Notes: a model not told the origin generated them from the sequence alone. Shown: positions 23,685 to 61,497, numbered from the stretch's first letter. The stretch is 64,000 bases of DNA from a virus (IMGVR_UViG_3300035682_000015), one strand, 5' to 3'. Program-made: numbers and translations.

Positions 23685-24380
23685 ATGGGGGAATTAAAAA
23701 TAAAGTACTTACTCCGATTATCATATTCTCAAAGAATGGGGATTTATATTAAATATAAAGCAGGTTGGAGTCTACTCTTCCACCACTCGGTACGCCCCCA
23801 TCCGGACTATCTACCGGTAATGTGGTACAAAGATATAACAAATAATCTACACCACCAAATAAAATGGGGAAAGATTATTAATTATTATTTCAATATATTT
23901 ATATGTATGATAGAGACAAAACCTAAAGATATAACCCCAATCAAAAGAAAGGGGATAGATATGACCGTTAAAGGTCTACAAAAGAAATACCCATTCATAA
24001 TAGGATATAAGGATGATACAACAACTCAATATATATCATTACACTACATTGATTTAATAATAGACCTCAACAAACTATCTGAGTATGCGGATGTCCCGGT
24101 TAACCCATATTGGGAATCATATGTACTTGCGAACCCCCAATACGAAAAAGTATATGCCTTATGGTCCTATTTAGAATTCCCCAATAATGATTTGTTTGGG
24201 GATATTAAAGACCATCCCGGATATATAATACAACAGAAGGTAGTAGAGGACCTCGAATTTATATACTCACACCTACCATCTCAACTAACACTACACTATA
24301 CTCCCAAATCAACTTTCTTCCCCGATGACCCACCAACTTATACCGTGAGATTAAAACCTAACGCATATCTAATGAGGTAA
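23685..24380 (+). CDS. hypothetical protein of island (candidate initiator; start uncertain)
   Basis: 231 aa ORF; stop is immediately followed by 3x23-bp iterons. Confidence 0.35.
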   Translation: MGELKIKYLLRLSYSQRMGIYIKYKAGWSLLFHHSVRPHPDYLPVMWYKDITNNLHHQIKWGKIINYYFNIFICMIETKPKDITPIKRKGIDMTVKGLQKKYPFIIGYKDDTTTQYISLHYIDLIIDLNKLSEYADVPVNPYWESYVLANPQYEKVYALWSYLEFPNNDLFGDIKDHPGYIIQQKVVEDLEFIYSHLPSQLTLHYTPKSTFFPDDPPTYTVRLKPNAYLMR

Positions 24381-24449
24381 CACTCCCGTTGGTTGGTCTC
24401 TGACACTCCCGTTGGTTGGTCTCTGACACTCCCGTTGGTTGGTCTCTGA
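24381..24449 (+). repeat. 3 perfect tandem copies of 23-bp unit CACTCCCGTTGGTTGGTCTCTGA
   Basis: Read directly: copies at 24381, 24404, 24427. Confidence 0.9.
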
Positions 24450-24558
24450 CACCATGTCATGTTAATAACTTTGTTGATAACTTTTTACCTTAACTTATTA
24501 ACAATGTCATACTGTCATGTTGATAAGTTTTTTTGGATATGTCAAATATACCCCCACT

Positions 24559-24589
24559 CCCCCCATCTTTTACCGGGGGGTTTTTTTTT
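24559..24589 (+). terminator. intrinsic terminator
   Basis: CCCCCC-loop-GGGGGG + T9. Confidence 0.5.
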
Positions 24590-24846
24590 AACCCCTCCCC
24601 TAAACACCCCCCATACCCCCTCCCTATCCCCCGTGGGGGTATCCCCCCTCCCCTCCCTCCCCCTTATATAACCCAAATAGGGGGGATAATCCTCTCGATG
24701 ACGTGTATGGGGGAAAAAAACTTTATATGAAAATCGTTTTAAAATTTCTAAAAAAATTTTTGGAAAAAATCCCCCGGTATAAATGGGGTGGTCAAATAGT
24801 GAAAAAAAATTTTTGGAAAAAAATTGATTGTAAAAGGGGAATATCT

Positions 24847-24854
24847 TATCTTTG
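24847..24854 (+). promoter_or_regulatory. -7 promoter element TATCTTTG
   Basis: upstream of 24913. Confidence 0.45.
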
Positions 24855-24912
24855 TTGACTATGGAAAAGATATATTCAATTTGTGGGAATAAAAAACCGA
24901 AAGAAAAGTAAT

Positions 24913-25401
24913 ATGATGATAAGTAAATTAAAGATGTTAAAGATTGGGGAGACCTTGAAGGATTTTAAGTGTTTGGTTTCAAGATTTAATGAGGTAAAGG
25001 GTGATAGAATATTATTGAGGGAGTTCTGTTTAAGAAATAGAAATCCCATATGGGATTTAACGGGTATAAATTATTTCAAGACCGGATTAAAATCTGAGGG
25101 ATTGATTCGGGATGGGGGTAAGAAAAAGGATGACCATTATATTCAAAGGTCTTTATGTATGGAGATTATCTTTAAGGAATTGAATGCTAACCCGGATATG
25201 AATGTTGATGAATTTATTGAATTACTTCGTAAGTATTCATCTACAGTTCAATTGACGGAAGAGGAACATAAGAAAATAACATTATATACGAGGAATACTG
25301 ATATTATGAATTATACGGCTTATGGTGATGTTGGTATAATTGTTAAAGGTCTTAAGGAGATTATTAATTCTACCCCCGCTTATGTAGTTGGGGGTTTGTG
25401 A
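24913..25401 (+). CDS. hypothetical protein
   Basis: ATG MMISKLK; track start is GTG. Confidence 0.5.
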   Translation: MMISKLKMLKIGETLKDFKCLVSRFNEVKGDRILLREFCLRNRNPIWDLTGINYFKTGLKSEGLIRDGGKKKDDHYIQRSLCMEIIFKELNANPDMNVDEFIELLRKYSSTVQLTEEEHKKITLYTRNTDIMNYTAYGDVGIIVKGLKEIINSTPAYVVGGL

Positions 25402-25402
25402 A

Positions 25403-25449
25403 CCCGAACTCCCTCCGGTCGGGATTCAATCCCCCCGCCCCCTTTTTTT
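25403..25449 (+). repeat. conserved C-rich post-gene element, copy 1
   Basis: AACCCnnACTCCCTCCGGTCG..ATTCAA.CCCCCCGCCCCC-T7 shared with 26877 and 33227. Confidence 0.7.
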
Positions 25450-25473
25450 ATGAAAATTAATATATTTATTAGT

Positions 25474-26067
25474 ATGAAAAATTTGTTAAACGAAGAGATT
25501 GGTAAAATTAAAAAAATGATGGGTATATCTCATAAACCAATCAACTTACCTTATCACGAACATCTTATTGAAATTTATTCTGATATTCCCACCGAAATTA
25601 CTGAAAACTCTGAGGTTGATGATAGATATATTGTTATAAATAAAATTAAACATAACGATTTTATTCATAGTCCAAAATTATTTTTGAAGTCTATTAGAAA
25701 ATCATCTCGTGGTGAGATGTTAACCGAATATTCTTTGGAAGAATTGGAGGATATGTTAACATTTAAGTTGGATGGTTATGATATTGGTTATGCTTTGAAG
25801 AAAGGTGATGGTGATGAGTATAATGAAATTGTGTCTGTTTTCAATAATTCGGGAATTAAAGGTATTGGTGATGCGTTAATTAAGTCAGCAATTAAAAATG
25901 GTGGTCGTTATTTGGACCATTATGATGGATTTCTAAGTGGTTTTTACTCCAAACACGGGTTTGAGGAGTATAAACGAGATAAATTTGACCCCCAATATGA
26001 CCCAAACGGTGAATTTAGAGATAAATACGGAGAATCTGATATTATCTATAGAAAATACAACACTTAA
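25474..26067 (+). CDS. GNAT-family acetyltransferase-like protein
   Basis: Motif A-like NSGIKGIGDALIKSAIKNG and GFYSKHGFEEY; weak. Confidence 0.4.
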   Translation: MKNLLNEEIGKIKKMMGISHKPINLPYHEHLIEIYSDIPTEITENSEVDDRYIVINKIKHNDFIHSPKLFLKSIRKSSRGEMLTEYSLEELEDMLTFKLDGYDIGYALKKGDGDEYNEIVSVFNNSGIKGIGDALIKSAIKNGGRYLDHYDGFLSGFYSKHGFEEYKRDKFDPQYDPNGEFRDKYGESDIIYRKYNT

Positions 26068-26105
26068 TAATTGTTTTTGATGTTAATTTATCTTATTATT
26101 TTAAT

Positions 26106-26876
26106 ATGAACGTATTAACAAACACTTTATTGGGGAACGATGTAATCATTGACATAATTGAAGGTCAAATGATTCTACATATTCCACATTCAAAAACAGA
26201 AATACCATTTTATGATGGATTTAATATGAATTATATTGAAAATGAGACCAAATTATTGGTTGATTTTGCTACTGATAAAATTTTTGACATCCCTAATGTC
26301 GAATCTCTAACTTTTGAGTATAATAGAATATTTTGTGACGTTGAAAGATTGGACGATAATGATGAACCATTATTTAATCTTGGTAGAGGTTTTTTTTATA
26401 CCAAAACTGATGACGGAAAAGACCTTAGAGTGTTAGATGATATGGTGAAAAAAAAGATTAAAGAAGAATTTTATGATATTCACCATAATAAATTGAATCA
26501 AATGGTTGAATATAGGTTGAATGAGTATGGTTGTGCAGTAATTATTGATTGTCATTCGTTTAGTGATATCCCATTTATAACTGATTTAGATAAAAGTGAG
26601 GTTAGACCGGACATTTGTTTAGGTGTTGATGATTTTCACACACCAAAATGGTTAATTAATCAAATTAAATCATATTTTGAATATCATAATTTATCTGTTA
26701 AAATAAATTCCCCGTACTCAGGGACAATAATTCCATTAAAATATTATAATAAAAACAAAAATGTTATTGGAATTATGATTGAGGTGAATCGAAAACTTTA
26801 TATGGATGAATTTATTGTTGATGATAATAAGGTTGATGAATTAAATTCTATTATTAAAAAATCTTTATTCATATAA
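26106..26876 (+). CDS. N-formylglutamate amidohydrolase-like zinc amidohydrolase
   Basis: HIPHS...IP and IIDCHS motifs reminiscent of FGase family; weak. Confidence 0.35.
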   Translation: MNVLTNTLLGNDVIIDIIEGQMILHIPHSKTEIPFYDGFNMNYIENETKLLVDFATDKIFDIPNVESLTFEYNRIFCDVERLDDNDEPLFNLGRGFFYTKTDDGKDLRVLDDMVKKKIKEEFYDIHHNKLNQMVEYRLNEYGCAVIIDCHSFSDIPFITDLDKSEVRPDICLGVDDFHTPKWLINQIKSYFEYHNLSVKINSPYSGTIIPLKYYNKNKNVIGIMIEVNRKLYMDEFIVDDNKVDELNSIIKKSLFI

Positions 26877-26923
26877 CCCGGACTCGTTTCACTCGTATTC
26901 AAATCCCCCCGCCCCCTTTTTTT
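26877..26923 (+). repeat. conserved C-rich post-gene element, copy 2
   Basis: see 25403. Confidence 0.7.
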
Positions 26924-26956
26924 TGGATAATATTTGGTGGAATGAAATGTTTGTAT

Positions 26957-26964
26957 TATCTTTG
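26957..26964 (+). promoter_or_regulatory. -7 promoter element TATCTTTG (duplicated unit AATGAAATGTTTGT.TTATCTTTGT also at 27509)
   Basis: direct read. Confidence 0.5.
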
Positions 26965-26982
26965 TTCTTTAAATTTTATAAA

Positions 26983-27495
26983 ATGGTTGATTATCAAACT
27001 TACGAAGAATTACCTAAACGGATTCAATACTATGTGAACTCAATAAAAGAAACGGGTTATGACGATATTAGAAGTTTTCAATTCCCTTGTAAATATTTTG
27101 GGGGTAATTCTTTTGGATGTAGTATTTGGATTGATGCTGAAGAAATGGTAAAAGGTCTCATTCCTTACCGAGGTGTGATTCAAAATATGATAACGAATAG
27201 TTTAACAAAAAATATATTCAATATTGGGTATTTGCATATTTCTGTTCATTATAAAAACAAACAACAGTTGGGTAAGAAATTCCTCCCGGAATTAAAAAAA
27301 CGATTAAAGGAATCTCTTGCCGGTAAATATATTCATTCTGTTCGTTTTGATGAAAACTCTCGTAACAATGACCCCGAAGTTTTTGTTGTGTTAAGACGTG
27401 ATAACGATATTGAAACTTGGGGTATTGTGAAAAATATTCTTGAGGATTTCAAAATTGAAAAAGGTTATCCTAATTTGTATGTTAAAATTTCTTAA
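26983..27495 (+). CDS. hypothetical protein
   Basis: ATG MVDYQTYEEL 18 nt after motif. Confidence 0.5.
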   Translation: MVDYQTYEELPKRIQYYVNSIKETGYDDIRSFQFPCKYFGGNSFGCSIWIDAEEMVKGLIPYRGVIQNMITNSLTKNIFNIGYLHISVHYKNKQQLGKKFLPELKKRLKESLAGKYIHSVRFDENSRNNDPEVFVVLRRDNDIETWGIVKNILEDFKIEKGYPNLYVKIS

Positions 27496-27546
27496 TATTT
27501 GGCCGTATGAAATGTTTGTTATATCTTTGTCGGAAATAAATTGATT

Positions 27547-27690
27547 ATGAGAGATAGAATAAAAAAATGGTGGAATAGGACTTGGTCCAATTGGGAGGTT
27601 GATACTAAGAGTAAGTGGTATTTTTATATTATACTTAAGAGAACATCCAACGATGGTTTAATCCAATTTAAAAAAATAAAAACTGGGGTA
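27547..27690 (+). CDS. small basic protein
   Basis: 47 aa; ATGA overlap with next. Confidence 0.3.
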
Positions 27691-28217
27691 TGAAAAACAT
27701 TTATTTAATTCCGACAGATAAACGGACTCGATTACATTATGACCACACCGGTTTATTTTTATCTCACCATTATCAGGTAAGTAAGGAGATTAATTCAATT
27801 GTTGAAGGCAGATATATCTACATTACATCGGATGAATACATTGGGTTGAATTGGTATATTGATGGTGGCTGGGTAAGAAAGGGTGTTATTGATGATAAGG
27901 ATTATTGGTCTGTTAGAAAGGATTATAAAAAAATCGTTATAACCAATGACCCCAAGTTAATTAAGGATGGCGTTCAGGATATTGGGGACGGTGTGATGGA
28001 TTGGTTCATTGAGAACCCCACCTGTGAATACTTCAATATTGAACAGTACAATTCATATGGGATTGATAATTGGAAGTACTTGGTAACTCTTCCAACGGAT
28101 AAGATTGACTTTGAAAAGGAGTTATCTAAATGGGGTTACAATAAGGGTAATTCAATTGACGTTGAGATTTTGGTTAATGAGATACTTCCAAAATTATTTG
28201 AACAATTTAAAAAATAA
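27690..28217 (+). CDS. modular paralog 1 (N-module MKNIYLIPTDK + diverged central module)
   Basis: Tandem array member. Confidence 0.55.
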   Translation: MKNIYLIPTDKRTRLHYDHTGLFLSHHYQVSKEINSIVEGRYIYITSDEYIGLNWYIDGGWVRKGVIDDKDYWSVRKDYKKIVITNDPKLIKDGVQDIGDGVMDWFIENPTCEYFNIEQYNSYGIDNWKYLVTLPTDKIDFEKELSKWGYNKGNSIDVEILVNEILPKLFEQFKK

Positions 28218-28225
28218 ATAAGATT

Positions 28226-29071
28226 ATGAAAAACATACACGTATTAGGAACAGATAAACCAACTTTTTTACATAAAAGTACAAAAACAGGTATTTTAATG
28301 AAATCATCCGCTTGTATTAATGATATGAAACAAGCACAAGGAATGAACATTTACATCACTTCTGATGAAATAGTTACAAAATATTCAAATGGTTTGTATT
28401 TTATTGATATTTACACAAACACAAGACATATATTTTCACCGATTTATATTAATAAAGATACTATTGCTTTTGGAAAATTTCACACATATATGAATGATGG
28501 TGGTATGTGTAAAAAAATCATCCTAACAACAGACCAAGACTTAATCAAAAATGGTGTACAAGCTATTGATGATGAGTTTTTAGAATGGTTTGTTAAAAAT
28601 CCAAGTTGTGAAAAAATTAGAACTTATTTGACTAAAGTTTTACAAAGTGGTAATCCAACATTTTATAAAGATGATTACAGAATAATCATTCCAAAAGAAG
28701 AACATAAATGTACTTGTGAAAATGGACACCCATATAACAATCTTTGTTGTAAAATACATGGTAAATTCATAAAAGAAGAACCTAAACAAAAATATAAAGA
28801 CTGTAATGGCAATTTAACAGATTGTACTTGTATAGAAGATACTATTGAAATGAAACAAGAAACACTTGAAGAAGTAAGAGATTTATCATATTATAAAGCT
28901 AATGCTGAAGAAGATTATTTAGCAGTTCCAATAAGCGTATTGAGATATATTTCTCAATTAGAGCAACAAGAAAGAAGTTATAGTGAGGAAGATTTAGAAG
29001 TAGCTTATTTTGAAGGTAGAGAAGGATTATATTCATTCAATGATTGGTTTGAACAATTTAAAAAGAAATAA
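28226..29071 (+). CDS. modular paralog 2 (N + central + Cys-rich insert + C-module)
   Basis: MKNIHVLGTDK ... ILTTDQDLIKNGVQAIDDEFLEWFVKNPSCE ... QQERSYSEED..WFEQFKKK. Confidence 0.55.
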   Translation: MKNIHVLGTDKPTFLHKSTKTGILMKSSACINDMKQAQGMNIYITSDEIVTKYSNGLYFIDIYTNTRHIFSPIYINKDTIAFGKFHTYMNDGGMCKKIILTTDQDLIKNGVQAIDDEFLEWFVKNPSCEKIRTYLTKVLQSGNPTFYKDDYRIIIPKEEHKCTCENGHPYNNLCCKIHGKFIKEEPKQKYKDCNGNLTDCTCIEDTIEMKQETLEEVRDLSYYKANAEEDYLAVPISVLRYISQLEQQERSYSEEDLEVAYFEGREGLYSFNDWFEQFKKK

Positions 29072-29075
29072 AATT

Positions 29076-30035
29076 ATGAAAAACATACACATTTTACCAA
29101 CAGATAAACCAAGTAGGTTATGGATGACTAAATTAGGTAATCTAACAAGATGCCACGATATAAAACCTATTAAAGAAGCATTAGGAAATAATGTAAATAA
29201 CTACATCACTTCTGATGAAGAAATTAAAGAAGGAAATTGGTTTGTAAAACCTAAATATTCAAAAGCAATTAAAATTGGATATGAGATTAGTCAAGCTGAT
29301 TCATCTTTTTTTGGAGGGTATGGTTATGATTGGACTGATTGTAAAAAAATCATCTTAACAACAGACCAAGACTTAATCAAAGACGGTGTACAAGCTATTG
29401 ATGATGAGTTTTTAGAATGGTTTGTTAAAAATCCAAGTTGTGAGTTTGTTGAATTGAATAGAAACTATAATCGGGGTAATGGAAAATATTATTACAAAAT
29501 CATCATTCCAAAAGAAGAAGCTAAACAATTATTTACAGACTACCCAATTATTGAATTAGGTGATGACGAATTTAAAGAAGCACCAATAAGAGAATGTGAA
29601 TTACTTTCTTTTGATGATGATGATAATAAGTACTGCTATGTAAAAGTAGGAGGTATTGAAAAAGAAATTAAACGTTGTTATATATACCCACAAAAAGGTA
29701 GATGCGGTGACGTTAATTGTGTTTCAATTAAAGAAATAAAAGAGTTGTTAAAAGAAGAACCTAAACAAGATGCTATTGAATATTCATTAAATGCTTTTAA
29801 AGTTCCAAAAGAATATTTTGGAAAACAAGAAACACTTGGAGAAGCATTATCTGAACATATAAAAGATATAAAATATCCTACTCTAATACAATGTGCTAAA
29901 TTTGGTGCTAAATGGCAACAACAGAGAAGTTATAGTGAGGAAGAAGTTTTAGACTTATTACAAGATTTTGCTAATGACTTATCTGATAATGTAATTAATA
30001 TTAAATTTTGGTTTGAAAAATTTAAAAACAAATAA
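29076..30035 (+). CDS. modular paralog 3
   Basis: MKNIHILPTDKPSRL; central module 97% nt-identical to paralog 2. Confidence 0.55.
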   Translation: MKNIHILPTDKPSRLWMTKLGNLTRCHDIKPIKEALGNNVNNYITSDEEIKEGNWFVKPKYSKAIKIGYEISQADSSFFGGYGYDWTDCKKIILTTDQDLIKDGVQAIDDEFLEWFVKNPSCEFVELNRNYNRGNGKYYYKIIIPKEEAKQLFTDYPIIELGDDEFKEAPIRECELLSFDDDDNKYCYVKVGGIEKEIKRCYIYPQKGRCGDVNCVSIKEIKELLKEEPKQDAIEYSLNAFKVPKEYFGKQETLGEALSEHIKDIKYPTLIQCAKFGAKWQQQRSYSEEEVLDLLQDFANDLSDNVINIKFWFEKFKNK

Positions 30036-30036
30036 G

Positions 30037-30261
30037 ATGAAAGAAACACTTGAAGAAGCTGCTGAAAGAAGATTTCCAAGTAAAACGGAAATGTACGATG
30101 TTTTTATTGAAGGCTCTAAATGGCAACAAGAACAAGACAAGAATAAGTATAGTGAGGAAGATATGCACAATTTAATGGATGAATACCAAAATTGGTTATT
30201 TAATACTAATACCGTAGTATTAACTTTTAGAGAATGGTTTGAACAATTTAAAAACAAATAA
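30037..30261 (+). CDS. stand-alone C-module protein
   Basis: KWQQEQDKNKYSEEDM...WFEQFKNK. Confidence 0.45.
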   Translation: MKETLEEAAERRFPSKTEMYDVFIEGSKWQQEQDKNKYSEEDMHNLMDEYQNWLFNTNTVVLTFREWFEQFKNK

Positions 30262-30265
30262 AATT

Positions 30266-31276
30266 ATGAAAAACGTACACGTACTACCAACAGATAAAAC
30301 GAGTAGGTTAGTTTTAGATGTAAACAATAATTTAGCATTAGCCTTTAATAAATCTATTGAAGAAAATGCGCTGTATAAAAGAACCATCTACATCACTAAT
30401 GATGAAGAAATTAAAGAAAATACCAATGTAAAAGACAAATGGGTAATTTCTGAATATGGTTTTGTTGTAAAAGCAGATAGGATTGAAAACAATTACCTTA
30501 TACACTCAACTGGAGGTTCTAATTTTTTACATCATTATAAATTTATAATTATGACAACAGACCCTCAACTTATTCAAGATGGTGTACAACCTATTGATGA
30601 TGAGTTTTTAGAATTTATAGTTAAGAATCCAAGTTGTGAGTGGGTTGAGGTTGACAAAAATTGGAATTACCCATTAGATAAAAGTTGGGAATATAAATTA
30701 AGAATCATTCCAAAAGAAGAACCTAAACAACTATTTACAAAAGGAGATAAAGTATTGTTTACAGGAAAAATGTTAGATGAAAATGTTGTTGATAAAGTAG
30801 TAACAGTATTTTATACATTAGGTAGAGGAGAGATAGATGATATGTCAGATATAATGGATGAATACACTCACGTTTATAGAGTTTGGAATAAAGATTTAAA
30901 ACACACTTCAAAAGAAGAACCATTAAGTTTTGAAGAATTTAGAAAAATTGCTTCTAAAGAATTACTTGAAAAATTTGATACTGATTGTTTAGAATATTCA
31001 GAAGATGGAGATTTTGATAATTACTTTTACGCTAATTGTAAATATTGGGAAAGTAAACTAAAAGAAGAACCTAAACAAGAATTTGGTTATACTACTAAGA
31101 TGGGTGTTGAGGTTAAGGATGAGATGGTTAGACCACTTATGGTTCCAAAGAAATATTTTGGTGAGGTGGAACATCCGGATTATAGTTCAGTGTTTGATTT
31201 TTTATCCGATAAGGATTACTTAACAGACAAACGAGAAGTTATTGAGAAAGAATTTAAAGAATATTTAAAAAAATAA
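30266..31276 (+). CDS. modular paralog 4
   Basis: MKNVHVLPTDKTSRL; PKEEPKQ linkers x2. Confidence 0.55.
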   Translation: MKNVHVLPTDKTSRLVLDVNNNLALAFNKSIEENALYKRTIYITNDEEIKENTNVKDKWVISEYGFVVKADRIENNYLIHSTGGSNFLHHYKFIIMTTDPQLIQDGVQPIDDEFLEFIVKNPSCEWVEVDKNWNYPLDKSWEYKLRIIPKEEPKQLFTKGDKVLFTGKMLDENVVDKVVTVFYTLGRGEIDDMSDIMDEYTHVYRVWNKDLKHTSKEEPLSFEEFRKIASKELLEKFDTDCLEYSEDGDFDNYFYANCKYWESKLKEEPKQEFGYTTKMGVEVKDEMVRPLMVPKKYFGEVEHPDYSSVFDFLSDKDYLTDKREVIEKEFKEYLKK

Positions 31277-31279
31277 AAT

Positions 31280-31753
31280 ATGAGTAAATGTTATGACAAC
31301 CCCGAGTTTGACGACCAAGAACCTGAAACACAAAATACATGGAAACAATCTATACCAAAAGACAATTTTGACAATGCTTTGGAAAGTTTCAAGGAATCGT
31401 TAATTAAGAAGTGTGACCCCACCCTTAGTGAGAAGTTGGAAAAGGTTGTCTCTAAGGAACCAAGTAAGTTTTGGTCCGAGAGTGATGAGAGGGTTAGAAT
31501 TAAAGAAGAGAAAAAACTTAGAGAGGCGTTTGATGAAATATACGACTCAATTGATTTTAGAGAATTTGACTTTGCGTCGTTTAAGTTGGGAGTTAAATGG
31601 GGACAACAACAAGACGAGAATAAGTATAGTGAGGAAGATATGAGAGATGCTCATCAAATGGGTGCTATTTTTGCTTATGGAAAAAAGGAAGTAACAAGAG
31701 AGGATAGAGTAAAACATTTTGAGGGATGGTTTAATCAAATTAAAAATAAATAA
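31280..31753 (+). CDS. protein with C-module
   Basis: KWGQQQDENKYSEEDM...WFNQIKNK. Confidence 0.5.
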   Translation: MSKCYDNPEFDDQEPETQNTWKQSIPKDNFDNALESFKESLIKKCDPTLSEKLEKVVSKEPSKFWSESDERVRIKEEKKLREAFDEIYDSIDFREFDFASFKLGVKWGQQQDENKYSEEDMRDAHQMGAIFAYGKKEVTREDRVKHFEGWFNQIKNK

Positions 31754-32367
31754 TGGAGTATTGTGAATTACCTAAGGATTCGTTATTAACGAAACTACCC
31801 AATTTTAATTATGTTGGTGAGGATAAGAAGAGATTGAATGTTGTAATTGCCGGTGGTGCTGTCCGGGATAGTTTATTTGGTGACGATTATAGTGATATCG
31901 ACATATTTGGTCTTACCAAAGGTGAATTAGATTCATTTGTGGAGATAAATCTGTCAAAATCACAAGGATATAAGATGGTTTATTTCAACGAGAACCTAAG
32001 AACTTACAGAAAAGGGAAGATTAAGGTTCAAATTATCTACCGAGAGTACGAAAAACTAACAGATATTATTGATTTGTTTGATTTTACCGTATGTCAGTTT
32101 ATGTATGACGGTGAAAAGGTCATTTGTAACCCCTCCGGAATACTAGATGTTCATCATAAGAGGATTATTATCAACCATTTGGAACCTTTATTTGTTTTTG
32201 ATTCGTTAAGACGGGTTCAAAAGTACGTTCAGAAGGGATATACTATCTGTAATGGGGGAATTAAGGACATTTTGGACAAATGTCGGGAATTAACACAGGA
32301 ACAATACGACGAAAACGTAGAATTTTACCCAAATACTGAGGAATATAGGATAATTAGGTTCGATTAA
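31753..32367 (+). CDS. polymerase-beta-type nucleotidyltransferase, CCA/poly(A)-polymerase head-domain-like
   Basis: VVIAGGAVRDSLFGDDYSDIDIF matches the hGGxVRD...DhDh signature of tRNA nucleotidyltransferase/PcnB head domain. Confidence 0.55.
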   Translation: MEYCELPKDSLLTKLPNFNYVGEDKKRLNVVIAGGAVRDSLFGDDYSDIDIFGLTKGELDSFVEINLSKSQGYKMVYFNENLRTYRKGKIKVQIIYREYEKLTDIIDLFDFTVCQFMYDGEKVICNPSGILDVHHKRIIINHLEPLFVFDSLRRVQKYVQKGYTICNGGIKDILDKCRELTQEQYDENVEFYPNTEEYRIIRFD

Positions 32368-32385
32368 AATTAAAAAAAATAAGAT

Positions 32386-32556
32386 ATGAAAACAATTTTG
32401 TGGTTTATAGTTAGTCATTTGGTGTTATATGTGTTGGGAAGTTTTATTGCTTGGGATTTGAACCCTTTGAATTGGTGGTTATTCACCTCATCCTTTGGTA
32501 GGGTGTTGTTTGTTATTATTGAATTGTTTTGGATTGGTAATTCTTTGAGTGATTAA
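32386..32556 (+). CDS. small membrane peptide
   Basis: 56 aa, two hydrophobic segments. Confidence 0.3.
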   Translation: MKTILWFIVSHLVLYVLGSFIAWDLNPLNWWLFTSSFGRVLFVIIELFWIGNSLSD

Positions 32557-32595
32557 CCCTTTTTTATTTCAAAATAATTTATTATACTTGTTACT

Positions 32596-33000
32596 ATGGA
32601 AATAGAAGAATCAAAATTAACGACTGAGGAGATTAGACAATTATATGATAATGCCTTCAAAAGAGAGATTGTGTTACCTGAAACATATAAACTTGTGATA
32701 TCAAAAATGTGTTCTGAGATTGAAGAGGTTTTGGTTCAGGGTTATGATACTACCACGGTATATAATCCAAATAATTTTGAACCGATGAAGAGATTTTTGG
32801 TAAATGTTAATATTCGATTTAAACCGGAATGTGCCATTTCTGGAAATAAGAAAAAATATGAAGAACAATTAAACAATTATTTCACAATGACTTTTGGTAG
32901 TCAGATTGATTTTATTAAGTTCAGTGTTCTATCATTCATTATCCCTCCCGAGAAGAGTAATGAAGATAAATTTTTTGAATTGTTTGGTATAAATAAATAA
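32596..33000 (+). CDS. hypothetical protein
   Basis: 134 aa. Confidence 0.5.
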   Translation: MEIEESKLTTEEIRQLYDNAFKREIVLPETYKLVISKMCSEIEEVLVQGYDTTTVYNPNNFEPMKRFLVNVNIRFKPECAISGNKKKYEEQLNNYFTMTFGSQIDFIKFSVLSFIIPPEKSNEDKFFELFGINK

Positions 33001-33009
33001 ATAAATATT

Positions 33010-33225
33010 ATGAGTGAATTAGTTAATGTCGGTAAGACAATGAAGGGAACCTATCAACAAATTTGTGATGGAGGATTTTTGACCCAATTCCCGGGGTCAG
33101 AGTTTAGAAATGAATCCAAGATAACAGGATTCGGTGATGTGTATGTTAAAAGTGATTTGGTTCAAACTTTTAATGAATTGAAAGAACAAATGACTGAGGC
33201 TAACGGAAGTTTCCCCATTTTGTAA
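33010..33225 (+). CDS. hypothetical small protein
   Basis: 71 aa, followed by C-rich element. Confidence 0.45.
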   Translation: MSELVNVGKTMKGTYQQICDGGFLTQFPGSEFRNESKITGFGDVYVKSDLVQTFNELKEQMTEANGSFPIL

Positions 33226-33226
33226 C

Positions 33227-33277
33227 CCATACTCCCTCCGGTCGATTTCAAACCCCCTCTCCTTTTTTGGTGTTGGG
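33227..33277 (+). repeat. conserved C-rich post-gene element, copy 3
   Basis: see 25403. Confidence 0.65.
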
Positions 33278-33291
33278 GGATATTTATTTAT

Positions 33292-33609
33292 ATGGGTAAG
33301 AAGAAACAAATCGTGTTTAAGTATTTTGATATAATATATTCCAGTTATAAGAAACATGGGAGACGGTCAATAAATATGAAATCACCTCACGTTCTATTTG
33401 AATATATGGATGATAATGGTCGTACCGCTTTTGATTATGACACAGAAAGAGAATCAATACAATTTGATTATGGTGATTTTTACACCGCCCAAAAAATGTT
33501 TGGGGTTTCTATACCTGATTTGGTGGATATCTGTAAAGAATATGTTGCCAATAAATTTGATATACCTAAAGCAGCCAATTCAAGTTTTCTTCCTAAAAGA
33601 TTAAATTAA
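33292..33609 (+). CDS. family-D paralog (xVFKYFD...)
   Basis: Paralogous to 35799 and 37192 genes; preceded by TGGGGGATATTTATTTATATG. Confidence 0.5.
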   Translation: MGKKKQIVFKYFDIIYSSYKKHGRRSINMKSPHVLFEYMDDNGRTAFDYDTERESIQFDYGDFYTAQKMFGVSIPDLVDICKEYVANKFDIPKAANSSFLPKRLN

Positions 33610-38909: not shown

Positions 38910-38941
38910 ATTAACCCCATCCTAATCGGTGGGGTTTTTTG
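38910..38941. terminator. bidirectional intrinsic terminator
   Basis: CCCCATC-loop-GGTGGGG with A-run/T-run flanks; overlaps stop of minus gene. Confidence 0.65.
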
Positions 38942-39944
38942 TTCCATATTTAATTATGATTTCAGTTGTTTCTTTTTGTCTTGAACCACTAATATAAGTT
39001 CTGGATATTTTAACACCTTCATCTATAACCTCATCAATTTGAGGACCCCACTTAATATATATGAGATTGGTTTTTGGGTCGGTATATCCGGCTGCCACAG
39101 TTTCTTTAACACCATTCTCAATCACATCATCAATCATTTTGGGAACACTATTGGTTTCATTTTCTTCCAACCAATCAAGAACACCAACAAGGTCACCATC
39201 TTCACCGGGTGTTTTTGTTTCTTTAACACCATTTTTAATCACACCAGCAATTCTTCCTTTGTGGTGATATACATCATCGTGAGTTTCTATTACACCCTTG
39301 TCAATCACTTTATCAACTATATCTCCACCTACATATTGACGTGGGTGAGAAGTTTTTACACCATTTCCGAGAACCTCATCAATGTCTCCTGTATATTCAC
39401 GAGATTGTAAGGGTGAAATTATTTTAACACCATTTTGTAGGACATCTTCAGCTAAAGTAGAACCACCTACAAAGGCAAAAATGGTTTCCTTCACACCATT
39501 TTCAAGAGTATCATCAACTGATAAGATTCTTTTATCACCCCAATAATTGGTGTTCTTTACCCCATTTTCAATAGTATCCTCAACCGACCAATCCGTTTTC
39601 ATATGAGCCATTTTAGTTTTTTTCACACCATTTTCAAGAGTGTCCTCAAATTGTTGTTTTCTATCCCGGGCATCTCTAAAGAGTGTAACATAAGTTAACT
39701 CTTTATTTATAATATTATCTTCCACCCATTTGGTGATGAGGTGTTGGTTCTGAACGCAATCCAACGAAGCGTAAGCAAAAATACTTTTGAAGAAGTTGTA
39801 ATTATACCATAGAGTTTTATTCTCAGTTAGTTCAATCATCCATTGTTTGGACTCAGTAAAGATTAACCAAGTGGAACCATTATGGGTATAAGTGTCCACC
39901 CCTTTAGTAAATTCATTAATTAATTTATTTATAATTCTTTCCAT
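38922..39944 (-). CDS. repeat protein with ~9 copies of D[TV][LI]ENGVK[EK]T unit
   Basis: Internal ~28-aa repeats read in translation. Confidence 0.6.
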   Translation of the reverse strand: MERIINKLINEFTKGVDTYTHNGSTWLIFTESKQWMIELTENKTLWYNYNFFKSIFAYASLDCVQNQHLITKWVEDNIINKELTYVTLFRDARDRKQQFEDTLENGVKKTKMAHMKTDWSVEDTIENGVKNTNYWGDKRILSVDDTLENGVKETIFAFVGGSTLAEDVLQNGVKIISPLQSREYTGDIDEVLGNGVKTSHPRQYVGGDIVDKVIDKGVIETHDDVYHHKGRIAGVIKNGVKETKTPGEDGDLVGVLDWLEENETNSVPKMIDDVIENGVKETVAAGYTDPKTNLIYIKWGPQIDEVIDEGVKISRTYISGSRQKETTEIIIKYGTKNPTD

Positions 39945-49412: not shown

Positions 49413-50010
49413 ATTAGAGAATCTTTGTATTAAGTGGTTGAATGAAAATTTTAACCCTATGGAACCATTCATTATGGAAGAATACCCTGATTATATTTTT
49501 CATATGAAAGATGGGAAATGTATTTTACAATACAATAAAAAAAATGGGTATGTTTATGTGAGTTATAGAGAAATTTGGAAATTTTTTGAATCCTATTTTA
49601 GTATGTCTAACCAACAAATTAAGGACATTACAAAGATATGGGTGGAGGAATACTACAAAGTGGGGGTAACAACAACTAAATTACATGAGAGAATTGGAAG
49701 AAGAATGGTGGAGGAACACTACAAAATGGGGGTGACAACAACTTTTGGTTTGGATAGATTGAATTACAGTAAGGTGGAGGAACACTACAAAATGGGGGTA
49801 ACAACAACTGGATTAATCCATCAACACCACCTAAGTCAGGTGGAGGAACACTACAAAATGAGGGTAACAACAACACTATCTGATTTTGGTAACGCAACTC
49901 TACCGGTGGAGAAACAATACAAAGAAATTCAAACAACCAACAACCAATTACAATTTTACTCTGAAAAGGATGTTGAAGAATTATATGAACAAAAAACAAA
50001 TGGAAAATAA
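49405..50010 (+). CDS. family-C paralog with C-terminal 22-aa tandem repeats (VEEHYKMGVTTT)
   Basis: N-terminal domain paralogous to 13073 and 20554 genes. Confidence 0.55.
   Translation: MTKLENLCIKWLNENFNPMEPFIMEEYPDYIFHMKDGKCILQYNKKNGYVYVSYREIWKFFESYFSMSNQQIKDITKIWVEEYYKVGVTTTKLHERIGRRMVEEHYKMGVTTTFGLDRLNYSKVEEHYKMGVTTTGLIHQHHLSQVEEHYKMRVTTTLSDFGNATLPVEKQYKEIQTTNNQLQFYSEKDVEELYEQKTNGK
49642..49941 (+). repeat. 66-bp tandem repeat, 4 good copies + 1 degenerate
   Basis: Unit starts at 49642, 49708, 49774, 49840, 49906. Confidence 0.85.
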
Positions 50011-51951: not shown

Positions 51952-52125
51952 ATGGGACTTATAAATAATCTTTATGCTGTGTATGAAAAATCACCGGCAC
52001 ACGGGAGCAAAGAACATAATGTAATTTTGGCTCCTTTCAAAACTAAAGAAGAGGCAGAACAAAACAGAATTAAATACGGTTATAACACCGATAATTATTA
52101 CGTAGATATTTTGAAATATGAATAA
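51952..52125 (+). CDS. hypothetical small protein
   Basis: 57 aa, stop overlaps thyA start. Confidence 0.3.
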   Translation: MGLINNLYAVYEKSPAHGSKEHNVILAPFKTKEEAEQNRIKYGYNTDNYYVDILKYE

Positions 52126-53266
52126 ACTAGATAAACAATACACAGACCTTCTCCAAGACATTCTTGACAACGGAGTAACAAAACAAGACAGAACAGGTAC
52201 AGGGACAATCTCAGTATTCGGAAGACAAATACGTCACGATATGAAAGATGGTTTTCCTCTTTTGACTACAAAGAAAATGCCATTCAAAACAATCGTAACA
52301 GAACTTCTTTGGTTCTTACGAGGAGATACCAACATTAAGTTTTTGGTTGATAATAATTGTCATATTTGGGATGGTGATTGCTACAAATCTTATAAACAAA
52401 GTATTTTAGAATCCTTTGATAGATTATCAAATGACCCCGTAATAGATGCGATGCCACCTAGAATATTAACACAAGAAGAATTCACCAACAAAATCAAAAC
52501 AGATGATGAGTTTGCTAAGAAGTGGGGTGAGTTAGGTCCTGTGTACGGTAAGCAATGGAGAAAGTGGGGTTATGATAGTGATAAATGGAGAGAAGACTAT
52601 AACAAATTACAATTTGGTTCTAAAGAAGAAATTGAACACCTTAGTAAAAAAGGTATAGACCAAATCACAAACCTAATCAACGACCTTAAAACAAATCCAG
52701 ACTCAAGACGATTGATGGTTAATGCTTGGAATGTTGGAGAATTAGACCAAATGGTTCTTCCACCTTGTCATTATGGATTTCAAGTTTATACAAGAGAGTT
52801 GAGTTTAGATGATAGAAAAGATATTTGGAATAAAAACAATTTCAGTCAAGATATGTCGTGGCATAATATGGAAGAACACGATATTATGGATTTACTAAAC
52901 GATAATGACATCCCAAAACGAGCAATCTCTTTAATGTTTAATATGAGGTCAAATGATGTTCCATTAGGGCTTCCATTTAATATATCATCTTATGGTTTAT
53001 TATTAGAAATTATTGGGAAAATGGTTAATATGATACCTGACGAATTAATTACTAATTTAGGTGATGCTCATATCTATAAAAACCAAGTAGATGGTGTTAA
53101 AGAACAATTAACAAGGAAACCATTTGAATTACCTAAATTAGTTATGTCTAACCAAATTAATTTTAATGAAAGTGTTGCTGAATTTTTGAATAGTTGTCTA
53201 ATAACTGATTTTATTGTTGAAAATTATCAATCACATCCAACCATAAAAATGCCATTATCTAACTAG
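52118..53266 (+). CDS. thyA: thymidylate synthase family (ThyA, long-insert type); possibly pyrimidine hydroxymethylase
   Basis: DRTGTGT, ELLWFLRGDTN, LGPVYGKQWR, LPPCHYGFQ (catalytic Cys), DVPLGLPFNISSYG; L. casei-like small-domain insert plus extra ~35-aa insert. Confidence 0.8.
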   Translation: MNKLDKQYTDLLQDILDNGVTKQDRTGTGTISVFGRQIRHDMKDGFPLLTTKKMPFKTIVTELLWFLRGDTNIKFLVDNNCHIWDGDCYKSYKQSILESFDRLSNDPVIDAMPPRILTQEEFTNKIKTDDEFAKKWGELGPVYGKQWRKWGYDSDKWREDYNKLQFGSKEEIEHLSKKGIDQITNLINDLKTNPDSRRLMVNAWNVGELDQMVLPPCHYGFQVYTRELSLDDRKDIWNKNNFSQDMSWHNMEEHDIMDLLNDNDIPKRAISLMFNMRSNDVPLGLPFNISSYGLLLEIIGKMVNMIPDELITNLGDAHIYKNQVDGVKEQLTRKPFELPKLVMSNQINFNESVAEFLNSCLITDFIVENYQSHPTIKMPLSN

Positions 53267-53322
53267 TTTTTTCATAATTTTATGATATTTATATTAAAGA
53301 GTAATCCTTAAACTAAATCAAT

Positions 53323-54153
53323 ATGAAAAAGTTTTTAATCTATGAAATAAAAAACAATATAAATGGTAAATCTTATATTGGACAATATAGTGGTGAGTCA
53401 TTTGAAAAGTATTTTGGAAGTGGAAAATTAATTAAGTTATCAATAAAAAAATATGGGTTAGAAAATTTTTCTAAAACAATTTTAGAAGAGTGCTTTAATA
53501 AAAATGAATTGAATGAAAAAGAAATTTTTTGGATAGATAAATTAAAAACTATTGAAAATGGTTATAATTTGACTGAAGGTGGAACAGGGGGTGATTTGTC
53601 TGAATTTATAAAGTATGGTGAGAATTGGGTTGAAAAACAAAGAATCTCCACAAAAAAATATTGGGACAATCTAACTGAAGATGAAAGAAAAAAAAGAAGT
53701 GAAATTGTTTCAGGTGAAAAAAATGGGATGTATGGTAAAGATGGATTTTGGAAGGGTAAAAAAATACCAATAGATATTATTAAAAAGTCATTGGAGAATA
53801 GAAGAAGTTACGATAAAGAACAAAACCCAAATTGGAAAGGTGGTGTTACATATGTTTATTGTGAATGTGGTAAAAGAATAGGTTATGGTCACATTCATTG
53901 TAACAAATGTAGACCTAGAACTAAAAACAATAATCCATTTTATGGGAAACAACATTCCGAAGAGACTAAAAAAAAATTAAGTGAAAAAAGGAAAGGGGTA
54001 AAACCAACAAATATGAAACCGGTAATGATTGATAATATTATTTATGAAAGTTTGGCGGAAGCGTCAAATATACTTAAAATTCCAATGGTTACAATTCGTT
54101 GGAGAGTGAAAAGTAATAATGAAAAATTTAATAATTACCAATATAAAGAATAA
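53323..54153 (+). CDS. GIY-YIG homing endonuclease
   Basis: IYEIKNNINGKSYIGQ ... NGYNLTEGGTGG; NUMOD-like repeats; Cys4 zinc finger CECGKRIGYGHIHCNKCR. Confidence 0.75.
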   Translation: MKKFLIYEIKNNINGKSYIGQYSGESFEKYFGSGKLIKLSIKKYGLENFSKTILEECFNKNELNEKEIFWIDKLKTIENGYNLTEGGTGGDLSEFIKYGENWVEKQRISTKKYWDNLTEDERKKRSEIVSGEKNGMYGKDGFWKGKKIPIDIIKKSLENRRSYDKEQNPNWKGGVTYVYCECGKRIGYGHIHCNKCRPRTKNNNPFYGKQHSEETKKKLSEKRKGVKPTNMKPVMIDNIIYESLAEASNILKIPMVTIRWRVKSNNEKFNNYQYKE

Positions 54154-60666: not shown

Positions 60667-61497
60667 ATGAAAAACACAAAAACTTACCACGAGTTGGTAC
60701 AAAAATTAAGAACGTTCTTCGTAAATAAGAACTTTATTGAGGTTCCGACCCAATCAAGATTATCTATTTTAGCTGCTTGTGAAAACCCACACTCAGTAAA
60801 AACCTTTGAATATGGGGGTGAAATTTGGCCATTACCACAAACCGGGCAAATGTGGTTAGAATTGGAATTATTGAAGAATCCTGAATGGGATGGAGTGTTC
60901 TGTATTTCAACATCATATAGAGAAGAGAAAAATCCAATCCCGGGTCGTCACGAATTAATCTTTCCCATGTTTGAATTTGAATCAAAGGGCGGTATGCTTC
61001 ATTTACTCGTATTAGAACGTGAATTATTACAATATTTAGGTTTCTCAGAACCAGTTCCCGTAGATTACGAACAAGTTTGTAAAGAATATGGAGATGTTTC
61101 TATTTTAGAAGATGAACACGAATCGAGAATGTGGAAAGAAAAAAGTGAGGTTATATCATTACAAAACTTTCCAATTAGAACAAACCCATTTTGGAATATG
61201 AAACACGATTCAGATAACATCTTCAATAAGGTTGACGTAATCCTTTTTGGTCAAGAAACTATTGGTTCTGCTGAAAGAAGTTGTGATGTTGAAAAGATGC
61301 GAGAGATGTTCTATACAATTGAAGGTGGTGGTTACTCTCAGAAATTATTTGAATTATTTGGAAAAGATAGAGTTGAGAAAGAATTAAAAGAATTCTTATC
61401 TTTGGACTTTTTCCCAAGATTCGGAGCCGGAATTGGTTTAACAAGATTGGCAAGAGCTTATGAATTAAATCAAAAAGTTTTGGAAGTTATAGAATAA
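60667..61497 (+). CDS. class-II aminoacyl-tRNA synthetase catalytic-core paralog (EpmA/GenX- or AsnA-like), no anticodon-binding domain
   Basis: Motif 1 FFVNKNFIEVPTQ; motif 2 YREEKNPIPGRHELIFPMFEFE; motif 3 RFGAGIGLTRLARAY. Confidence 0.6.
   Translation: MKNTKTYHELVQKLRTFFVNKNFIEVPTQSRLSILAACENPHSVKTFEYGGEIWPLPQTGQMWLELELLKNPEWDGVFCISTSYREEKNPIPGRHELIFPMFEFESKGGMLHLLVLERELLQYLGFSEPVPVDYEQVCKEYGDVSILEDEHESRMWKEKSEVISLQNFPIRTNPFWNMKHDSDNIFNKVDVILFGQETIGSAERSCDVEKMREMFYTIEGGGYSQKLFELFGKDRVEKELKEFLSLDFFPRFGAGIGLTRLARAYELNQKVLEVIE

Follow-up and report, generated by a model that had tools for sequence, protein, structure and literature searches.

Introduction

The closest described system to the one reported here is the promoter-early stem-loops (PeSLs) of T4-type phages, in which a polyG/polyC stem-loop has been shown to terminate transcription (Arbiol et al., 2010, PMC2839356; Comeau et al., 2014, PMC4122927). 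Here we analyze a C-rich element that occurs three times in a 64,000-nucleotide (nt) stretch of viral DNA (IMGVR_UViG_3300035682_000015; this whole stretch is referred to below as the window). A complete element consists of a bulged mini-hairpin, a short linker, a C tract interrupted by one base, and a T-run, and its copies lie between genes. We tentatively propose, with a probability of roughly 0.45, that the family represents oriented, intergenic boundary cassettes between a terminator and a promoter, in which the terminator slot holds a hairpin-less and probably factor-dependent signal.

Several well-known termination signals provide further points of comparison. The lambda terminator tR1 is built as rutA-boxB-rutB, so that the boxB hairpin lies between the two halves of the Rho utilization (rut) site. 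Such sites are not conserved in sequence, usually extend over 70–80 nt or more, and release the RNA tens of nt downstream; an upstream hairpin has been reported to protect the trimmed 3' end of Rho-terminated transcripts. The class II termination signals of T7 RNA polymerase (ATCTGTT followed by a U-run) are independent of hairpins and act on single-subunit phage polymerases.

Our element has no sequence homology with PeSLs, but the likeness in layout is considerable. Both are short, conserved composite motifs in one orientation that flank small genes of unknown function in hyperplastic regions of large phages, and a transcription stop and the next gene's promoter, with an AT-rich stretch in between, are combined in PeSLs and predicted to be so in our element. 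The genes flanked by the repeats are non-conserved, and insertions, deletions and replacements end at the copies; the recombination between copies known from PeSLs has its counterpart in the pattern that separates the window from one of its relatives (see below). In contrast to PeSLs, the conserved core lacks a stable polyG/polyC stem-loop: it is a mini-hairpin with an unpaired C tract, an ordinary stem-loop stands by a quarter to a third of the copies, and the predicted promoters are of other types than sigma-70. With rut sites and tR1 the element would share a C-rich, G-poor, largely unstructured RNA exposed right after a stop codon, a small hairpin of the protein-binding type within the C-rich stretch and a downstream pause point, but here 45–65 nt are conserved nearly base for base, with a fixed linker and a U-run abutting the C tract. 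A conserved sequence followed by a U-run without a stem-loop also recalls the T7 class II signals; the window, however, has host-type promoters and ordinary hairpin terminators, and no gene for such a polymerase was seen in it.

Results and Discussion

Three copies in the window and a family in large phages

Three related sequences were found on the + strand of the window (Table 1), where a repeat search grouped them as one family (D15) with identities of 100, 75 and 61% across 57 nt. The pattern of the 3' block had three matches in the window against 0.03 expected from shuffled sequence, and that of the 5' block had two against 0.01; chance is no explanation for the three copies. A hidden Markov model built from 32 relatives recovered copies 1–3 at E = 7e-17, 4e-14 and 8e-10 and revealed no fourth site anywhere in the 64 kb. 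The initial annotation had thus rightly recognized a recurrent, strand-specific set of elements at stop codons. Its starts were off by 2–3 nt, and its end of copy 3 (33277) falls 9 nt beyond the T-run. Rather than beginning 1–2 nt after the stop codon, as it had stated, the element overlaps the stop in all three copies (TGA 25399–25401, TAA 26874–26876 and TAA 33223–33225). The T-runs are T7, T8 and T6. Copy 2 carries ACTCGTTTCACTCG instead of ACTCCCTCCGGTCG, and the C tract of copy 3 is degraded to CCCCCTCTCC.

Table 1. Positions of the element copies, their parts and the adjoining signals in the window, counted from its first nucleotide
Feature	Position	Strand	Remarks
Copy 1, complete element	25401-25449	+	its first base, A, also ends the TGA stop of the open reading frame 24883-25401
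Copy 1, outer stem	CGA 25405-25407 paired with TCG 25419-25421	+
Copy 1, bulge ACTC	25408-25411	+
Copy 1, inner stem	CC 25412-25413 paired with GG 25417-25418	+	loop TCC 25414-25416
Copy 1, linker GGATTCAAT	25422-25430	+
Copy 1, C6-G-C5	25431-25442	+	followed by T7, 25443-25449
Copy 2, complete element	26875-26924	+	GT/AC hairpin subtype; overlaps the TAA stop of the FGase-like open reading frame
Copy 2, outer stem	CGG 26879-26881 paired with TCG 26893-26895	+
Copy 2, bulge ACTC	26882-26885	+
Copy 2, inner stem	GT 26886-26887 paired with AC 26891-26892	+	loop TTC 26888-26890
Copy 2, linker TATTCAAAT	26896-26904	+
Copy 2, C6-G-C5	26905-26916	+	followed by T8, 26917-26924
Copy 3, degraded element	33224-33268	+	outer stem broken: CAT in place of CGR
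Copy 3, bulge ACTC	33231-33234	+
Copy 3, inner stem CC/GG with loop TCC	33235-33241	+	TCG at 33242-33244
Copy 3, linker ATTTCAAA and C tract CCCCCTCTCC	C tract 33253-33262	+	followed by T6, 33263-33268
Copy 3, alternative pairing	33253-33294	+	C-run 33253-33257 can pair with GGGGG 33275-33279, T-run in the loop, -13 kcal/mol
ATATTTAT and ATG behind copy 3	motif 33280-33287, ATG 33292	+
Variable block absent from L303	25450-33223	+	bounded by copies 1 and 3, copy 2 within
Ordinary terminator-like hairpin ahead of copy 1	25372-25398	+	ACCCCC, 12-nt loop, GGGGGT, then TTTGTG; within the last codons of the upstream open reading frame
ATATTTAT motif before the GNAT-like gene	25462-25476	+	motif 25462-25469, then the probable true start ATG 25474
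Bacteroidota-type promoter pattern TTTG-N20-TATCTTTG	26933-26964	+	directly behind copy 2; consensus from PMC7366714
ATATTTAT sites in the window	4468, 9587, 12536, 18085, 23895, 25462, 33280, 37462, 41062, 41848, 55965, 60536	+

Outside the window, a scan of public collections with either half of the element, followed by removal of duplicates, yielded 127 distinct copies. The copies are located in viral and metagenome contigs with a GC content of 0.28–0.35, some of the viral contigs being 200–320 kb long. No copy was detected in deposited phage genomes, and the window itself had no nucleotide match among 50,697 deposited phage records; two of its proteins did have matches, but these give no placement for the phage. 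A known RNA family or ribozyme was rejected, since Rfam gave no match at gathering thresholds and, around copies 1 and 2, nothing above noise when E values up to 10 were admitted. As far as the scanned sequences allow us to judge, the family has no annotation and is confined to a clade of large, uncultured phages of low GC content with Bacteroidota-looking promoters.

All copies are intergenic, 0–50 nt past a stop codon and 20–60 nt ahead of the next ATG, and coverage by open reading frames (ORFs) around them is much higher on the same strand than on the opposite one. Neighbors were counted for the 78 copies with enough flanking sequence: 61 have co-oriented genes (+/+) on both sides, while an opposite-strand gene lies upstream in six and downstream in six (loci with such genes: L261, L313, L197, L130, L284, L214, L105 and L042). 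These genes encode an HNH_3 endonuclease, proteins of the T5orf172/MUG113 family (upstream of the element in three genomes and downstream in one) and one unknown family of 144–149 amino acids, which occurs on either side. Because the identifiable ones are inserted homing-endonuclease genes, they leave the picture of an oriented element unchanged, and the surroundings of the element look like a preferred landing site for such genes.

The 5' module is a bulged mini-hairpin

In the 5' half, the sequences fit the structure CGR[ACUC]NN[UYC]N'N'UCG, whose inner pairs covary between CC/GG, AC/GU, GU/AC and GG/CC. The form ACTC-CC-TYC-GG-TCG is present in 98 copies, ACTC-AC-TTC-GT-TCG in 15, ACTC-GT-TTC-AC-TCG in eight (including copy 2) and ACTC-GG-TTC-CC-TCG in one, with one exception. 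An ungapped alignment of 107 distinct 30-mers was used for the hairpin test. In it, 94.6% of the mini-hairpin cells are paired against 86.6% in shuffles, none of the 500 shuffles reaching the observed value. Pairing rises to 99.5% in the inner helix, where 29 double-sided changes and three pair types per position were counted, whereas all controls with the structure slid along the alignment fall to 8–43%. G-U cells outnumber A-C cells by 41 to 8, and therefore it is the sense strand that folds. Judging from this alignment, compensatory changes maintain the hairpin, with the sense strand favored. The claim that the element has no conserved hairpin consequently fails for the 5' half and stands for the segment adjoining the T-run. 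An alternative simple hairpin, CCGRA-CUCCC-UYCGG, was rejected (81.5% paired against 82.7% in shuffles).

Other structural explanations were also rejected. ARAGORN found no tRNA-like 3' half (suggested by TTCAAAT and the C-run), and inspection revealed no paired T-stem. A G-quadruplex or i-motif made of four C/G tracts is incompatible with the variants ACTCAC and AACCGG, which lose two of the four tracts. A promoter for an extracytoplasmic function (ECF) sigma factor or of the T7/T3-like type (GAACTC..TCAAA; GACTCACT) has misfitting spacings, and covariation argues for pairing instead; this resemblance is retained solely as part of the promoter alternative discussed below.

The 3' module is an unpaired C tract abutting a T-run

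Behind the hairpin, a linker of fixed length (8–9 nt) ends in AAT (AAU in RNA) and leads to C6-G-C5, in which the central base is sometimes T or A. The T-run directly abuts the C-run and has a length of 4–11 (mode 7) in the 127 copies. Composition averages 24.7 C against 9.4 G per 60 nt (41% C, C/G = 2.6, about 20 YC dinucleotides) in a genome of approximately 30% GC, the C-rich stretch being 45–65 nt long, and the excess of C over G at copies 2 and 3 ranks among the highest in the window. The 3' module is also found alone, without the hairpin and directly after stop codons, for example as TAACCCCGCCCCCTTTTTT in L211 and L215.

Folding leaves the C tract and the U-run unpaired in copies 1 and 2 and in about half of the relatives. 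The fold energies of the three copies are no better than those of shuffles (z = −1.0, +1.0 and +0.4), whereas an ordinary terminator of the window, taken for comparison, reaches −18 kcal/mol (z = −2.9), and a generic terminator scan returned nothing at the three sites. A sense-strand U-tract does follow the gene, but no GC-rich stem lies 0–2 nt before it. In 68 of the 127 copies, copy 2 among them, there is no run of four or more G within 60 nt upstream or 22 nt downstream; the C tract therefore has no partner in cis there and the element is not a classical intrinsic terminator, in agreement with the initial annotation.

We accordingly regard as very unlikely an ordinary intrinsic terminator in which the C-run would be either the 3' arm of a long-range stem, with the 3' arm of an upstream hairpin as its partner, or the 5' arm of a stem whose other arm is a G-run past the T-run. 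Potential partners do exist: a run of four or more G lies upstream in 47/127 copies and GGGGG within 22 nt downstream in 12/127, copy 3 included, a fold of copy 1 pairs GGGGG at 25390–25394 with the C-run, and copy 3 can form a C5/G5 hairpin of −13 kcal/mol (Table 1). However, the upstream G-run is normally engaged in a hairpin of its own. In the 12 copies with downstream GGGGG, a hairpin that uses the C-run as its 5' arm would have the T-run in its loop instead of after its stem.

Most improbable of all appears an action in trans, either of the C-rich RNA itself as a small RNA or decoy, or of a G-rich RNA that would complete its stem. The conserved, single-stranded 12-nt C tract beside a U-run does resemble the 3' arm of a stem, and the conserved non-coding region 750 nt upstream of copy 1 contains an invariant GGGGGGAT, complementary to AUCCCCCC. 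The complementarity nevertheless amounts to just 8 nt, there is no evident promoter for a separate small RNA, and GGGGGCGGGGGG was found on the sense strand nowhere in the window or in the 856 kb of related loci that we compared.

A further scenario, which we consider rather unlikely, is a new kind of terminator, in which a factor would read the ACUC mini-hairpin 8–9 nt from the single-stranded C6-G-C5, with no stem in cis. The factor (or a trans-acting strand) would then replace the terminator stem at the adjacent U-run, and the phages of Bacteroidota would gain a switchable, sequence-specific stop signal that travels with gene cassettes.

The exact 19-mer AATCCCCCCGCCCCCTTTT is also part of a different repeat, which is widespread in high-GC bacteria and archaea: it occupies at least 12 loci in one metagenome-assembled genome (MAG) of Anammoxibacter and four in a MAG of Methanobacteriota, and it occurs in Desulfobacterales and others (L133–L194, which are genome contigs, and the high-GC loci among L195–L314). 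That repeat reads AAATC5-NN-C5TTTT-nn-AAAGGGGGA; an inverted partner TCCCCCTTTnnnAAAGGGGGnnnAGGGGGATTT is often present some 30 nt upstream, and Rfam gave no match. The portion AAATC5-6-NN-C5-T4 is identical in both, and in the high-GC repeat and the copy-3 subtype alike a G-run downstream provides the pairing partner of the second C-run. The two differ in that the high-GC repeat has the inverted partner and lacks the ACTC mini-hairpin, and a long T-run followed by a phage promoter motif is not regular there.

The element occupies a terminator slot and marks the joints of gene blocks

A systematic search for empty sites gave two informative pairs only, and both are instructive. Loci L208 and L225 agree in both neighboring genes, in the T-run and in the TATTTAT region behind it, but a small terminator hairpin in L225 takes precisely the place of the L208 element. 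The element therefore occupies the slot of a terminator stem. In the second pair, two genes are separated in L105 by an 83-nt spacer made of the element and the ATATTTAT motif, whereas in L303 the stop and start of the same two genes abut (TAATATG). The element and the promoter-like motif thus behave as one cassette. From these comparisons we conclude that the element occupies a terminator slot and is gained and lost together with the promoter-like motif downstream. The initial annotation had missed both features: that the element can stand in for a canonical terminator hairpin at an orthologous site, and that it forms one unit with the motif behind it.

On a larger scale, L303 has one single element between the homologues of the gene upstream of copy 1 (72% amino acid identity) and of the gene 33292–33609 (57%). 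In the window, 7.8 kb separate the two genes; copies 1 and 3 delimit the intervening block, and copy 2 lies inside it. The GNAT-like and FGase genes of this block (25474–26876) have no homologue in the 856 kb of related loci. L269 has, at its orthologue of the copy-1 site, an element with 98% identity to copy 2. Presence and absence of the element differ at orthologous sites (L126 and L303 against L052 and L105), the families of the flanking genes are diverse, and one and the same family may precede a copy in one genome but follow a copy in another. Across the genomes compared, the copies evidently form the joints at which gene blocks differ. The statement that they bracket the GNAT-like and amidohydrolase-like genes was thus correct but too narrow, since they represent breakpoints of gene-block exchange. 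With regard to these two genes, the amidohydrolase assignment is solid (Pfam FGase, E = 1.6e-33), whereas the GNAT assignment is weak (E = 0.007, under the Pfam cut-off).

Copies also cluster, with up to four within 3.4–5 kb in relatives, and some have decayed (L303 1480–1535, at 1510; L301 3591; L196 2082). In one decayed form, TAACCCAAACTCCCCTCCCCT9, the 5' start is fused directly to the C tract, and others have lost the C tract; such shortened versions mean that the family also erodes.

These observations may suggest that the element is a selfish or recombinational repeat without a regulatory role of its own, such as a miniature inverted-repeat transposable element (MITE), a homing-endonuclease target or a recombinase site. 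Polymorphic presence at orthologous sites, truncated and decayed copies, clustering in hyperplastic regions, the location at mosaic joints and the HNH and T5orf172 genes inserted on either side would all fit. We nevertheless consider this unlikely. Terminal inverted repeats, a target-site duplication and an associated transposase are absent; placement is strict, after stops and before promoters, never within genes and always co-oriented; compensatory changes keep the sense-strand hairpin; the C tract and its boundary to the T-run are near-invariant, although the flanking genes are only 55–75% identical; and the element substitutes for a terminator hairpin. Specific mobile structures were also rejected. 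A MITE or an IS200/IS605-type end does not agree with one small hairpin only, filled and empty sites without duplication and neighbors that are not transposases. The alignments of 32 and 107 copies contained neither the R''/L''-L'/R' inverted-repeat arms nor the GTTRRRY core of an integron attC site.

Signals before and behind the element

The proposed boundary cassette is often accompanied by ordinary signals. A complete hairpin terminator (G-run and T-run within 45 nt) lies directly upstream in 19/78 copies. The terminator-like hairpin ahead of copy 1 (Table 1) has counterparts in L301, L269 and L303, in which the orthologous ORF ends in the hairpin loop. Ordinary terminators of the window have the form AACCCCC-loop-GGGGG-T6 (repeat families D3 and D9), and a regular-expression search found 11 hairpin terminators in the 64 kb, which hold roughly a hundred genes. 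As the genome uses ordinary hairpin terminators, the C-rich element has to be something additional. Its position next to them fits a back-up terminator and a start-of-unit signal equally well.

Downstream of the T-run, a ATATTTAT-type motif (TG..ATATTTAT) follows in 51/78 copies, and a Bacteroidota-type promoter pattern in 14/78, copy 2 included. The latter (TTTG-N17-22-TAnnTTTG; the source of the consensus is PMC7366714) occurs at 18 sites of the window against 5.0 ± 2.4 expected, whereas matches to sigma-70-type promoters are not enriched in the window, suggesting that the host is probably a member of the Bacteroidota. The layout of ATATTTAT followed by ATG is also present behind several ordinary terminators of the window. 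From the GC block to ATATTTAT/TATTTAT, the distance has its mode at 17 after ordinary hairpins and at 18 (16–21 nt) after the C-run of the element.

The ATATTTAT motif lies 3–6 nt ahead of the ATG at twelve + strand gene starts of the window (Table 1), with gaps up to about 20 nt in relatives, and in many cases it is separated by 16–18 nt from the GC block of a preceding terminator. The motif may represent a promoter or a translation signal specific to the phage. Four small, unrelated-looking genes at 15005, 18095, 19364 and 25474 share an N-terminal peptide of about M-x-L-x-E-x-I-x-(R/K)-I-x-x-M-M-G-I (D6), which supports ATG 25474, and not ATG 25450, as the start of the GNAT-like gene.

The surroundings raise the possibility that the element is part of the downstream transcription unit, either as a promoter or operator or as the 5' leader of the next gene. 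One version would be a hairpin promoter of the N4-early type for a phage RNA polymerase, with a small stem, a 3-nt loop and a start at a set distance, which would fall in the conserved CAAAT; N4-type promoters have a stem of 5–7 bp with a 3-nt loop on the template strand, and the phage encodes the virion RNA polymerase. Another version would be a leader or attenuator to which a regulator binds. The element is gained and lost along with the ATATTTAT motif, it is often right behind a complete ordinary terminator, where little upstream transcript is expected, the spacing from the hairpin to CAAAT and the C-run is fixed, the distance from the C-run to TATTTAT is narrow, and at six loci the upstream neighbor has the opposite orientation. 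On the template strand the loop would be GRA, with a central purine like that of N4 promoters. Several observations point the other way and render the possibility somewhat improbable. The opposite-strand neighbors, where identifiable, are inserted homing-endonuclease genes, and at six loci it is the downstream neighbor that is on the opposite strand; in L042 the element is followed by a hairpin serving a convergent gene, so that there is no co-oriented gene to drive. A predicted sigmaA-type promoter at 27498–27529, nearly identical to the one behind copy 2, has no element ahead of it, and the 3' module occurs alone, hairpin-free, right after stops. The bias of G-U over A-C indicates folding of the sense strand and not of the template, a 3-nt loop is present but a stem of only 3 + 2 bp with a 4-nt bulge is weak for extrusion from DNA, and no phage RNA polymerase gene was seen in the window.

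Translational explanations fared no better. A small peptide or poly-proline leader, read from the ATG behind upstream terminators, was rejected on inspection of the copies, because the frame through the C tract varies, the linker varies by 1–2 nt and many copies have no ATG. The frame of the ORF ending at 25401 is open past its TGA through copy 1 to ATG 25450 (...TRTPSGRDSIPPPPFF-M..., 25399–25452); this is probably coincidental, since copy 2 behaves otherwise, and an in-frame opening into the next ORF is present in copy 1 only. Stop-codon read-through or a signal like a selenocysteine insertion sequence (SECIS) was rejected: most copies follow TAA, and copy 2 encounters a stop after 17 codons.

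A possible mechanism and its weak points

Under the reading that we favor, that of terminator-promoter boundary cassettes, a full cassette consists, from 5' to 3' on the sense strand, of an often present ordinary C5-loop-G5 hairpin, the mini-hairpin, the linker, C6-G-C5 with the U-run, the promoter-like motif and the next gene. The sense RNA would act as a hairpin-less, factor-dependent transcription stop or insulator at the gene end. In its most likely version this would be a compact, rut-like C-rich tract for the loading of Rho, exposed once translation ends, which is suggested by the C-rich, G-poor composition and by the position right after stop codons. The U-run may serve as the pause and release point, and the mini-hairpin is a probable protein-recognition feature, comparable to boxB between the rut halves of lambda tR1; the upstream hairpin, where present, could protect the trimmed 3' end. 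Because the same 50–90 nt are repeated in one orientation, homologous recombination between copies could insert, delete or swap the intervening genes, as described for PeSLs. All three candidates of the initial annotation, namely a rut-like Rho terminator, a protein-binding site and a processing signal, are compatible with the data from sequence.

A number of points weigh against this interpretation. Termination, Rho dependence and the promoters are all inferred from sequence. A rut site needs no such sequence conservation, fixed linker or covarying hairpin, and a C-rich stretch of 45–65 nt is at the short end for Rho loading, for which roughly 60–80 nt of untranslated RNA are typical. The covarying classes of the hairpin may derive from just three or four events, and the conservation may partly reflect shared ancestry through recombinational spread instead of selection. 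Ordinary terminators adjoin the copies (19/78) more often than expected from a rough comparison with their density in the window. The distance between the C-run and TATTTAT is narrow and similar to that after hairpins, so the T-run may belong to the promoter instead. The excess of conservation, the fixed linker, the adjacency of terminators and the possibly set distance from the C-run to the motif are the reasons why the promoter or leader and the purely recombinational explanations are kept alive.

Other features of the window

The window has a GC content of about 30%, and almost all of its genes are on the + strand. It is phage-like: an I-TevI-like GIY-YIG endonuclease lies behind a thymidylate synthase, and small ORFs without a known function are numerous. 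Within the variable block, between copies 2 and 3, four tandem paralogous genes (27690–31276) share their start regions and internal 104-nt segments (D1, D7, D12, D16 and D20).

About 750 nt upstream of copy 1, the region 24370–24880 is apparently non-coding, and 24447–24855 is conserved at 73–84% nucleotide identity in many relatives. It begins with three tandem 23-nt direct repeats ACTCCCGTTGGTTGGTCTCTGAC (24382–24450), followed by inverted motifs of the TGTCATGTTGATAAC type, and has a strong hairpin terminator at 24559–24589. The window reaches its highest C content here (38 C in 60 nt), in a stretch that includes ATCCCCCCTCCCC, which resembles the 3' module of the element, and an invariant GGGGGGATAATCC. 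Possible identities of the region are an origin, an operator hub and a non-coding RNA. Its direct repeats share the ACTC-CC-NNN-GG-TYG layout with the 5' half of the element; as they are absent from the relatives, we draw no conclusion about a link.

The thymidylate synthase (52118–54153, 382 amino acids) matches the 266-position Pfam profile over nearly the whole protein, which implies a long insertion. The GIY-YIG homing endonuclease directly behind it has NUMOD3 and the I-TevI DNA-binding domain. The 276-amino-acid protein encoded at 60667–61497 resembles class II aminoacyl-tRNA synthetases and is 50–53% identical to the "tRNA ligase" of the Prochlorococcus phages P-SSM2, P-SSM5 and P-SSM7 and of huge uncultured phages. 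Two intra-coding repeat arrays, at 39004–39650 (− strand ORF 38922–39944) and 49636–49875 (D2, D13 and D10), have a spacing of mostly 66 nt (22 codons).

Conclusion

If a stem-less stop indeed operates at these sites, the phages of Bacteroidota, whose transcription signals are almost unknown, would possess a compact, sequence-defined terminator, and it would explain approximately 10 kb of the genome in which hairpin-based predictors see no terminator. Whatever the mechanism, the element is a clean marker of the sites of gene-block exchange in a widespread clade of uncultured large phages, and its motif lets annotators delimit the cassettes. The idea of mobile regulatory cassettes, developed for the PeSLs of T4-type coliphages, would thereby be extended to a very different group.

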